A stretch of DNA of 35,268 bases from a virus (lineage: Duplodnaviria > Heunggongvirae > Uroviricota > Caudoviricetes), in IMG/VR virus record IMGVR_UViG_2778261214_000028, positions 1-35,268 of that record; one strand, 5' to 3'. Every line of letters begins with the position of its first letter. Position 1 is the stretch's first letter. Made by a program: the position numbers. Below, one piece after another: positions 1-3,000 of this stretch.

Positions 1-3000
1 GAATCCGATATTTTCCCCGGCCTGAAACTCTCTTGCGGGCTTGTTTAGTCTTACAGTAATCGAATGTGCCATTAAGCAGCAGCTCCTTCTAATTCGTCTC
101 GTCTGATGTTGTAAACGTCCTGCGCTTTGTGCTGCTCCGGTGTGCCTTCGAGCATCTTCCACGCTTTGGCGAACGCCTGTTTAAGCTCTTCCACGGTGTT
201 TTTCTGCAATGCTGCGTCAGTGAATGCTTTTAGAACCTGTTCAGGTGTAGGTGATGGTTTTGACTGCTTTGCTGCTGCGTTCTGCTGATGTTTATGCTCG
301 TCGGTATCTGCATCTTTCGCATCATCAATGCCGAACAAACCATTGAGGCAATACTTGCGTGCATAAGAGCTTGTAGCTCCCGTAACTTGTGCAGAATCCA
401 TTCCTTTCTTGCTTTCTTCCTCTCGTGCAAGAGCGGTTGCCGTATGACTGTTTTCGCCATCGGTAATAGTTGCCGTGGCTTTCACATAATACCGATCACC
501 AATCAACACAACTTCATCGCTGATTGATAAAAACAGGCCATTCAGTAACGGCTTAACGCCTTCAAGAATGTCTTCGCAGCTTCTGTATTTATATTTACCG
601 AATGAGTCGTACTGATTCTTTGGCGCGTTCAAGTTCTCCTGAATAGCTGCCAGTCTTGCGTAAAAGTCTTTGCTCATATGTTTGTTCTCAGAATGGGCAT
701 GGCCCAAGGAAATAACGCTGATTTAATACTTCAGTCTTTGCCGCATTTAAAAATACGCGAACACCTTCACGATCTCCCTTCTGGCGATACATTAACGCCT
801 GCTGCGTGTACATGCGTCTCTGTAACTTGCTCTCCTTCACTGTGGTTGCAAGTGACATGAATATCTCCTTCGTTACCGATTAATTCTTTCATCTGACGAA
901 TGAATTCTTCGTCTGACCAGTTATCTGTGAAACTCATTTCCTGCGATACCACGGAAGGTTGATAGCTGATTTCATCGCTTTATTTGCTTCAAGCCACATT
1001 TTTGAATCACCAATAAATCTGGCTATTACTGCTTTGTTTTGTGCCGCACGAAGCATCTGGTGATTAATGGCTATTTCATTGCGCATAACGCCTCCAGTTG
1101 TTTCTTTGCTGCTCTAATTAATTGTTTAACTCGGCGTGATAATTCAGATTCGTGCGGGTAGAAAGCGGACATGACGCCGCTACCCGCGAGCTGAAAGTGC
1201 ATCATGGGTAACTCCTTATATTTGATTGCATAACGAAAACGCCTCGAGTGAAGCGTTATTGGTATGCGGTAAAGCCGCGCTTAGGCGGCTGATGTTTCTT
1301 CTTTCAGGCTTTCGAGATATTTACGTGGGTCGTCGTAACATTGGCATTCGCTGTACCAATCCACCCAGCGATCAGTAAGCCCCACCTCTGATAAATCTTC
1401 ATCGGTAAGGCTCTCATCCCACATCTCAAGGCCGTTAGCATTGCAGTAATCAGGCTTGATGTTGTTGTCATACTGAAAGGCGTCATAATCAGCCAGTGCG
1501 CCCATCAGGCGAACACCCTCTTCAACACTTGCCACTTCTGCAATGAACGGTTTCATAGGTACTTGCGGGATATGCCAGACACGTAATTTCATATTTCCTC
1601 CGTCAAAAAAATCGCCCTCACATTGGAGGGCAAAGAAGATTTCCAATAATCAGAACAAGTCGGCTCCTGTTTAGTTACGAGCGACATTGCTCCGTGTATT
1701 CACTCGTTGGAATGAATACACAGTGCTTATTCGTACTAATAAAATACCCAATTTTCTGTTTCTTGGTTGTGTCCAAAGTTATATTCAATATCTGGTGTTG
1801 ATGTATCAATATTTTTCATCCCATCAACAAGAGTTGATACAACAGCCAAATCTTGTTTTATTCTCATTAAATGGTATTTCTTCCGGCGCAATAAACTTTC
1901 AATAGCAAGTTTCTTCGTTGGGAATGCAAAAGATCTTTCTGCATTTTTTGCTACTTTCTTAATTGCATATCTATTTCTCTTTTGTTTCCATTCCTGTAAC
2001 CACTGATTTGGTGCTGGTTTAAAATTAACAATCCAATGCGCAGGAACCAACCATGCATAATGCTCTGTCTGATGAAAAGCTATATATTGAAGTGCGAATA
2101 TTTTGATTCCATCTTCTTCAACTGTCGCCTGGAATCTCCAGAAAACAGGCATTCCATCATGTTCAGTTTCTGATTCAGGAAAAGGTACGCTCCATGATTT
2201 TGTCATATCTCACCTCAAATAAGTGGTTTGCTGTCTAATTTCATTTTCTGGCGACCAACACAAGTCACACCCATTTCACTGCGTGGCTTGCGGTAGTAAA
2301 GATTGTGCCTGTCTTTTAACCACATCAGGCTCGGTGGTTCTCGTGTACCCCTACAGCGAGAAAAATAGTAAAATCCTCTTACCCCTACAGTAAGAGAGTA
2401 ATTTATATGGATGTGTTATCTGGTATAACTGCCGCGAAACAGGCTTATGATCTGCTGAAGACAATAAAAGAAACCAGAGACGATGCTGTTATCGCTAAAG
2501 CTATTGGTGATCTACACCAAAGAATAACTGACTTACAGATGCTTAATGCGGAGCTCTCTGGCCTTTATCAGGCCGAGAAGGAGATCGCAATGAAGCTTCG
2601 AGATGAAAATAGAAAAATCAAGATGTTTGTTGTGCAAGCTGAGAATTATGAACTTCATACAACTGAAGGTGGTTCTGTCGTGTATCGACCTAAGAGTCAT
2701 TCCGATCCTTCTATTCAGCAGCATAACCTTTGTGCACATTGCTTCGGCGAACATAAAATATCGATACTTCAACCAAGCACGGTTACTATAAAATCTAATG
2801 GGTTCTTTGTGCATTCATGTCCTCGCTGTAAGAATGAATACCGGATGTATAGAGCGCCAGACCCTAAGCCTGTATATGTACCGCCGCTGACAAATTATTA
2901 ATTTTATTCCTGAAATGGCCTCTTCACCCCCTTACTTTGTCAGGGGGATATCTCCTTCAGTTTTGACCATTCGCCTTAATACTTTCCTTAAGTCGATGTA

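Follow-up and report, generated by a model that had tools for sequence, protein, structure and literature searches.

The repeat and the gene behind it

In the 35,268-nucleotide (nt) virus record IMGVR_UViG_2778261214_000028, the whole of which we call the window and which is, judged by its sequence, a lambdoid Stx1a prophage, we analyzed a short direct repeat in the control region of hkaP, a gene for a protein of 164 amino acids. Two exact copies of the 11-mer TACCCCTACAG lie on the + strand at 2346–2356 and 2380–2390, 34 bp apart from start to start, as an earlier note on this DNA had stated; its remark that the flanks are partly kept also holds, the 16-nt stretches TACCCCTACAGCGAGA and TACCCCTACAGTAAGA being 88% identical. 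Copy 1 forms the loop and 3' arm of a hairpin, here called hairpin 1, and overlaps a predicted −35 region, while copy 2 contains the predicted mRNA start A2381, which aligns to the annotated RNA start of sieB in phage P22. The repeat had been placed just upstream of the ribosome binding site, and copy 2 indeed ends 16 nt before the ATG at 2407 and adjoins a Shine–Dalgarno-like run, AAGAGAG (2392–2398, + strand), read from the sequence 8 nt before that ATG. Both copies are embedded in local inverted repeats.

By itself the repeat is not statistically significant: when the window was simulated 300 times with a first-order Markov model, 35% of the runs had one or more exact 11-mer direct repeats within 50 nt, and the mean was 0.52 per window. 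We count it as real because the two-copy architecture is conserved in relatives, and not because it is rare. Two copies spaced 32–35 bp apart occur also in lambda, P22, HK620, SPN9CC, Klebsiella phages and the Rac prophage, so that the repeat is kept in related phages, a point that the note had named for checking. A search for further copies, also suggested there, returned only these two, with no third TACCCCTACAG on either strand of the 35-kb window when one mismatch was allowed. The only other close direct repeats of this kind in the window are at 6811–6892, a tandem array with a 24-bp period (TGTCTCGAAGTTAGAGACACTCAA...) that, by analogy with lambda, looks like replication-origin iterons. 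The 8-mer CCCCTACA has a third copy at 4460–4467 (− strand) within the cI gene; at least three copies were found in only 3 of 100 shuffles of the window, a marginal excess, and we assumed this third copy to be due to chance. A 94-nt stretch of the conserved DNA ahead of the gene (hereafter the head), including both copies, is present in 987 of 5426 complete E. coli genomes (~18%) and lacks annotation in the genome records among the matches listed. In most E. coli genomes the homology stops exactly at 2390, the last base of copy 2.

The gene behind the head, hkaP (2407–2901, + strand), is opposed to the pL operon and encodes a Rip1-family protein. Its product is 99.4% identical to HkaP of HK620, called a "putative superinfection exclusion protein" by the HK620 authors; it has no Pfam or NCBIfam match and falls in phrog_1244, where the function is given as unknown. 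It does match PDB entry 9oox_L, "ring interacting pore 1 (Rip1)" (E=1.8e-10), residues 3–146 of 164 aligning to 14–156 at ~27% identity with both CxxC pairs in register, and it consists of a helical N-terminal half and a C-terminal CxxC...CxxC. Going by this alignment, HkaP is a near full-length Rip1 homologue. The corresponding gene of phage vB_EcoP-720R6 encodes essentially the Rip1 of 9oox (E=1.4e-105) and stands behind a head with identical repeats. The pore-forming anti-phage defense of Rip1 is reportedly described by Patel et al. in Nature 651:1060 (2026). A review that summarizes this work (PMC13434031) presents a single-protein defense that senses portal or small-terminase rings and whose pores kill the infected cell, and it places the founding Rip1 in a Pseudomonas prophage between terminase genes, a context that differs from the slot of hkaP.

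Read leftward, the region consists of a pL-like promoter, nutL-like boxA/boxB, N, an hkaQ-like open reading frame (ORF), hkaP on the opposite strand, the repeat region, orf156 and a gp17-like gene. The pL-like promoter, TTGACC-17-TATCTT (3764–3792, − strand), lies upstream of the nutL-like elements and of N (3297–3569, − strand; Pfam PF25694, E=1e-15) and is presumed to be the source of leftward antisense transcription. With N on one side and gp17/ea10-side genes on the left, the slot of hkaP has a layout like that of lambda, P22 and HK620. The sequence at 1700–2950 is 100% identical to LC744178 and that at 2306–2950 is 99.7% identical to the hkaP module of HK620. Relative to phage 933W, 2269–3298 is an insertion between L0079 and N; orf156, a gene of the 933W L0079 type, is therefore a downstream gene of the leftward pL operon and no divergently controlled partner of hkaP. 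The description of the region as a divergent control region thus does not stand, and there is no sign of an orf156 promoter in the repeat region. We also considered 2207–2300 as a remnant of an N gene and rejected this, the stretch being the L0079–N spacer of 933W-type phages.

Homology to the sieB promoter and sas antisense RNA of P22

The sieB promoter of P22 and its sas antisense RNA were reportedly the subject of work by Ranade and Poteete in 1993. Positions 2283–2400 of the window are 86–90% identical, over ~108–119 nt, to the sequence that immediately precedes sieB in lambda, P22 and their relatives, and the alignment to lambda and P22 runs in register, with both copies and the 34-bp spacing kept. 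In the P22 record BK000583, the sieB promoter feature at 29690–29720 reads tgtacccctacagcgagaaatcggataaact, beginning TGTACCCCTACAG and spanning tgtacccctacag...taaact, and a "sieB RNA start site" is annotated at 29727, the A of cACCCCTACAG (that is, the A of ACCCCTACAG), 7 nt after the −10. By this annotated start, copy 2 corresponds to +1 to +10 of the P22 sieB mRNA. In the window, the hexamer TAAAAT (2369–2374, + strand) aligns with the annotated TAAACT of P22, and A2381 aligns with the annotated start after the same 6-nt gap. By homology, then, copy 1 would overlap the −35, TAAAAT would be the −10 of a sieB-type promoter and copy 2 would start at +1, with the hkaP mRNA predicted to begin ACCCCUACAG at A2381. 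A consensus promoter scan of the window left TAAAAT at 2369–2374 unflagged because its −35 is poor. Other families of the repeat, introduced below, have the −10-like hexamers TTTAAT and TAGACT at the equivalent place. The note's assignment of the repeats to a control region of the 164-amino-acid gene is borne out, and they very likely contribute to its regulation; they are homologous to the annotated promoter and start of P22 sieB.

Table 2 of a P22 small-RNA survey from 2026 lists P22A-sas as an RNA of 127 nt, seen in infected cells only, at 1321 reads per million (RPM) (PMC13397905). Its sequence aligns to the minus strand of the window and holds CUGUAGGGGU, the reverse complement of the repeat, twice, so that P22 sas contains complements of both copies. 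From homology to this 127-nt RNA, we predict a sas-like antisense RNA at 2290–2411 (− strand), whose 5' end would lie a few nucleotides within the downstream ORF and whose 3' end would lie just beyond a conserved 31-nt anchor that precedes hairpin 1. Taking sas at 11,387–11,513 (− strand) of AF217253, the sieB ATG at 11,509 and the start site 31 nt upstream of that ATG, we find that 36 nt of the P22 RNA overlap the sieB mRNA. The other 91 nt (~70%) lie upstream of the sieB start and carry the anchor and the complement of copy 1, the latter in the antisense hairpin 1', which accordingly sits in the portion of sas outside the mRNA overlap. According to reviews, sas pairs with the mRNA of sieB and makes Esc the translated product in place of SieB, the pairing is required for P22 to escape from SieB, and disrupting it alters both sieB expression and the efficiency of P22 superinfection. 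In the texts read, we found no description of a role of the repeat itself in the P22 sieB/sas system. Searches against Rfam gave no match at the gathering threshold anywhere in the window, and in 2207–2406 none at E up to 10.

The element is very probably a sieB promoter/sas antisense control region. It shares with P22 the slot, a gene opposed to pL between an N-type antiterminator and ral/ea10, as well as ~87% identity of the head, repeats at 34 bp, the position of the putative −10 and a predicted start, aligned to the annotated one of P22, at the first base of copy 2. It differs from P22 in its downstream gene, the Rip1-like hkaP of phrog_1244, which is unrelated to SieB, and in that no conserved internal start of the Esc type was found: a candidate at Met62, AAGGAG-N6-ATG, is strong but not kept in the S.Kent homologue and was rejected. 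The control region is of a known kind and is here attached to a Rip1-like gene.

Lambda (34,405–34,482) and the Rac prophage of K-12 (our locus L299, 2066–2156) have the anchor, hairpin 1 and both copies as in the window; in Rac the anchor has diverged and a single base of copy 2 is mismatched. Unlike the window with its hkaP, both carry sieB behind the head. Neither record annotates a promoter or an antisense RNA there. An annotated small RNA of K-12 Rac, KilS (L299, 1906–2003), lies ~60 nt left of the Rac anchor on the same leftward strand. As an analogue of sas it was rejected, being further left, in the kilR leader; this separate RNA shows that the leftward transcript is processed or independently initiated in K-12. 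The prophage small RNAs AgvB, AsxR and Pas are likewise not this locus, being encoded downstream of pR' or elsewhere.

Anchor, hairpin and repeat families among relatives

The left end of the conserved head is the 31-nt anchor GCCTGTCTTTTAACCACATCAGGCTCGGTGG (2307–2337), single-copy in the window, where none is expected by chance. Loci carrying it were gathered by scanning IMG/VR with parts of the anchor and adding phage records; a contig scan with a 15-mer gave mostly chance matches in unrelated phyla. The anchor (GCCTGTCTTTTNACCACNTCAGGCTCGGTGG) hardly varies among more than 150 loci, which come from lambdoid and P22-like phages of E. coli, Salmonella, Shigella and Klebsiella, though the DNA on either side of it is mosaic. 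Two crossing helices, ACCAC/GUGGU and GCCUG/CAGGC, can be traced in it, but on such a putative pseudoknot the comparison is uninformative because these helices do not vary; the anchor of Rac, with the compensatory variant GCCCGG...CCGGGC, is the one compensatory example. In heads with a single copy of the motif, the anchor also carries an extended −10-like sequence, TGGTATNCT (TGnTATNCT). The anchor could be a promoter in these single-copy heads, an RNA element or a recombination linker. A hairpin, GTGTATTCACTCGTTGGAATGAATACAC, lies at 1696–1735 of the window; the HK620 annotation gives this sequence as a terminator of the tL2 type. HK620-type phages have it immediately next to the anchor, and in the window orf156 intervenes.

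The anchor is always followed by a hairpin with compensatory stem variation, also across single-copy elements. In the window this is hairpin 1, TTCTCG-TGTA-CCCC-TACA-(G)-CGAGAA (2338–2362), with copy 1 at its apex. RNAalifold applied to 27 minus-strand sequences kept hairpin 1, with compensatory changes in 6 of 8 pairs, and in a count of pairs 91.7% of cells were paired and both sides had changed in 7 of 9 pairs (stems TTCTCG/CGAGAA, TTCCTG/CAGGAA, TTCCTT/AAGGAA, ATGCTGG/CCAGCA, ATACTGG/CCAGTA and ATTCTTGG/CCAAGAA). Folds of the minus strand are the more stable by 1.8 kcal/mol on average, a difference that is no more than suggestive. Around copy 2 lies another inverted repeat, CTCTTAC-CCCTACA-GTAAGAG (2376–2396), which on the minus strand gives nine pairs followed by AUUUUACUAU. 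This hairpin is not kept in register in other elements (59% of cells paired), and a hairpin between the repeats is not supported either (62%). Copy 2 is therefore better seen as the predicted 5' end of the mRNA than as a second structural module.

The copy 2 hairpin bears on another explanation of the locus, in which the minus-strand structure from 2397 to 2375 together with AUUUUACUAU is an intrinsic terminator and the repeat reflects two terminator-type hairpins. A terminator scan flags the hairpin with its nine pairs and U-rich tail, and tL1 and tL2 are expected downstream of N, but the structure is the unconserved one, hairpin 1' lacks a U tail, sas of P22 continues through both hairpins and the HK620 authors placed tL1 elsewhere. 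We regard a terminator as very improbable.

Comparison of 36 unique double-copy elements resolved three families of the repeat: family I with (T/C)ACCCCTACAG, family II with TCCCCAACA(ACAA) and family III with TTTCCACAGTCAAA. In all 36 the two copies share an exact stretch of 9–14 nt, usually 10–14, at a distance of 32–35 bp, and the DNA before, between and after the copies differs among elements. Identity of the copies is 0.97–0.98 within families and 0.57–0.59 between them; the corresponding values are 0.74 and 0.45 for the spacer containing the −10, 0.43 and 0.37 for the leader, and 0.97 and 0.96 for the anchor. Differences between families are present in both copies, as in the exchange of A/U to U/A at two positions between families I and II, and one element (L178) has an A to G change in both copies. 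In the Rac prophage of K-12, TACCCCTACAG and TACCCTTACAG stand 35 bp apart upstream of sieB with a fully diverged spacer. The copies are identical over just this short stretch, unlike a relic of neutral duplication, which argues that something requires the match.

The heads with one and two copies differ in a regular way. Single-copy heads consist of the hairpin followed by a Shine–Dalgarno sequence and the ATG of a variable gene, 66–72 nt from the anchor start; double-copy heads have the hairpin, a −10-like hexamer, a second copy of loop and 3' arm, the Shine–Dalgarno sequence and then the ATG, 100–106 nt from the anchor start. Two single-copy heads of family III (L268 and L272) have the hairpin 1 motif directly before the Shine–Dalgarno sequence and ATG, and look as if the 33 bp between the repeats, with the −10, had been deleted or never gained. 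The repeat might therefore be the by-product of a tandem duplication of promoter and leader whose copies were kept separately, one as the hairpin apex and the other as the context of the start site. The single-copy heads with C-rich loops (CCCTACA, CCCCACAG, TCTCACACA) ahead of the Shine–Dalgarno sequence and ATG are consistent with such an origin, as are the two single-copy versions of family III and the 3' arm of family III hairpin 1, which resembles a relic Shine–Dalgarno sequence. A recent duplication would nevertheless leave neighboring bases alike, and the identity is limited to 9–16 nt; the architecture of 32–35 bp with a −10 would have to arise three times, or the copies to change in concert; and within families the copies are more conserved than the −10-containing spacer, with the concerted changes between families I and II and in L178 seen in both. 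On this evidence we consider a mere by-product unlikely.

The position downstream of the head is a hypervariable slot for cargo genes, which are read in opposition to the pL operon. The clusters of unrelated small proteins encoded at fixed offsets behind the head number at least 38 and include SieB, Rip1-like proteins and others, several of these others with N-terminal CxxC motifs. The hkaP cassette is bracketed by CCTCTTACCCC (2375–2385) and, at its right boundary (2919–2946), by CCTCTTCACCCCC, a degenerate third copy of the motif that leads into a hairpin, CCCCCT-N9-AGGGGG. In three cargo-less relatives (L037, L046 and L099), TAAAATCCTCT is joined straight to CACCCCCTTATTTTGTCAGGGGG; the two brackets are joined precisely and the promoter head is left facing the CCCCCT-N9-AGGGGG hairpin.

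The families of the repeat are uncoupled from what surrounds them. Family I is found with lambda N as well as with the antiterminator gene 24 of P22, types of left flank are shared by families I and III, hkaP/Rip1-like cargos stand behind families I and II, and sieB, hkaP and Rip1 all stand behind family I; the same cargo family is found behind different motifs and different cargos behind the same motif. As the family tracks neither left flank nor cargo, a dedicated phage protein as regulator is unlikely. The earlier note had taken the repeats for binding sites of such a regulator, and here we depart from it; no candidate protein with matching specificity is visible. It was right that the motif does not resemble the oL/oR operators. 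In its general form, the operator explanation has the 11-mers as DNA sites at −35 and +1 through which a sequence-specific regulator represses or activates the hkaP promoter. The positions are classical for repressors, 34 bp is about three helical turns and both copies are strongly conserved. Yet three families would demand three protein specificities uncorrelated with left flank or cargo, and family I stands beside lambda N in some phages and P22 gene 24 in others; a host protein would not tolerate three versions of the motif; and there is no further full copy in 35 kb, no likeness to oL/oR and no nearby DNA-binding protein that co-varies with the site sequence. We judge operators improbable. 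Direct-repeat operators and iterons, such as those at 6811–6892, share with the element short, regularly spaced repeats in noncoding control DNA; unlike them, it has two copies only, no identifiable cognate protein and families uncoupled from the neighboring genes.

Three specific signals were examined and set aside. An N-utilization boxB was rejected, since family I is shared by phages whose antiterminators differ (lambda N and P22 gene 24). By reading of the sequences, resemblance to a DnaA box holds for family III only, which also counts against an operator, and the CsrA GGA motif is absent from the apices of family I.

Two further genes of the operon were noted. The ORF at 2932–3378 (− strand; 148 amino acids) overlaps the end of N, and the PHROG profile aligns only from residue 29, so that its start is probably Met29, without overlap with N; the true product would probably be 120 amino acids long, like HkaQ of HK620. 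The ORF at 1281–1646 (− strand) encodes a protein of the P22 gp17 type (Pfam PF17420, E=3e-53) in the same operon and is another gene tied to growth on lysogens or exclusion.

The repeat as a candidate RNA-pairing signal

SieB aborts infection midway through the lytic cycle, and SieB and Rip1 are abortive-infection proteins. A prophage SieB or Rip1 is dangerous to its carrier, whose own lytic growth makes the triggers, and the answer of P22 is the sas antisense RNA. A prophage with such a gene must disarm it on going lytic, and antisense RNA from pL is a natural means. By analogy with sas in P22, this rationale may apply to hkaP.

In every family, the repeated stretch makes up the loop of the antisense hairpin 1' and the arm of it that is complementary to the 5' end predicted for the mRNA. 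Where a head has one copy, transcription is predicted to start within the hairpin, so that this complementarity comes of itself; where it has two, the direct repeat maintains it. Computed duplex energies are −22 to −25 kcal/mol for cognate pairs and −5 to −15 kcal/mol across families, and the hairpin's own fold is −8 to −13 kcal/mol. The simplest matching partner for the repeat is the element's own RNA. We therefore read the head as a promoter from which the prophage expresses a rightward abortive-infection gene and over which an antisense RNA of the sas type runs leftward, with the repeat as an RNA-pairing signal, and consider the chances of this whole reading to be evenly balanced. For the specific pairing role of the repeat, taken on its own, we would put the chance somewhat below even.

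Under this reading, copy 2, as the single-stranded 5' end of the mRNA, would first pair at the loop and 5' arm of hairpin 1', and this nucleation would speed formation of the duplex that covers the Shine–Dalgarno sequence and start codon. Firing of pL, upon induction or from a superinfecting relative with the same head, would shut off translation of the Rip1-like killer, and the phage would avoid triggering its own abortive-infection protein. The motif family would then set which phages silence which resident cassette, and the three families would be specificity classes.

Several observations weigh against this interpretation. The RNA and start-site data come from P22 only, and all are transferred to this phage by homology. 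Within their overlap, sas and the mRNA are in any case fully complementary, which leaves no obvious need for a second pairing site, and for pairing that begins in a loop, the GGGG tetraloop of hairpin 1' is small. Fold z scores of the minus strand are unexceptional (−1.1 for the window and −1.8 for P22), and the counts of G–U wobbles, 46 vs. 46, favor neither strand. Three families represent few independent evolutionary events, and the double-copy architecture could conceivably have arisen separately in each of the three. Finally, the 5' end of sas may come either from pL read-through or from a promoter of its own.

A precedent for the proposed mode of action exists in IS10, where the 5' end of the RNA-IN mRNA pairs with the loop of the stable antisense hairpin of RNA-OUT, the pairing extends down the arm and ribosome binding is blocked. 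The likeness is confined to this putative mode of action and implies no sequence relationship. Unlike in IS10, the recognition hairpin of our element lies outside the overlap and the complementarity comes from a direct repeat in the DNA.

For annotation, the findings advise that the repeat not be called an operator and that orf156 and hkaP not be treated as a divergent pair. More broadly, anchor, hairpin and repeat may together form a portable "safety catch" for interchangeable abortive-infection genes, with families I–III as "immunity groups," a generalization that we offer tentatively and think rather more doubtful than the pairing role itself. The cargo gene, be it SieB, a Rip1-like protein or one of dozens of small unknown proteins, would be expressed in the lysogen and silenced in cis and in trans by the antisense RNA whenever pL is active; specificity would be determined at the apex of the antisense hairpin, which the repeat matches to the 5' end of the mRNA, and the immunity groups would decide which superinfecting relatives disarm the resident defense. 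If the repeat is such a recognition element, it would explain how cargos are swapped without loss of self-protection, predict which phages escape which prophage defenses and provide a simple experimental handle for switching these defenses on or off.

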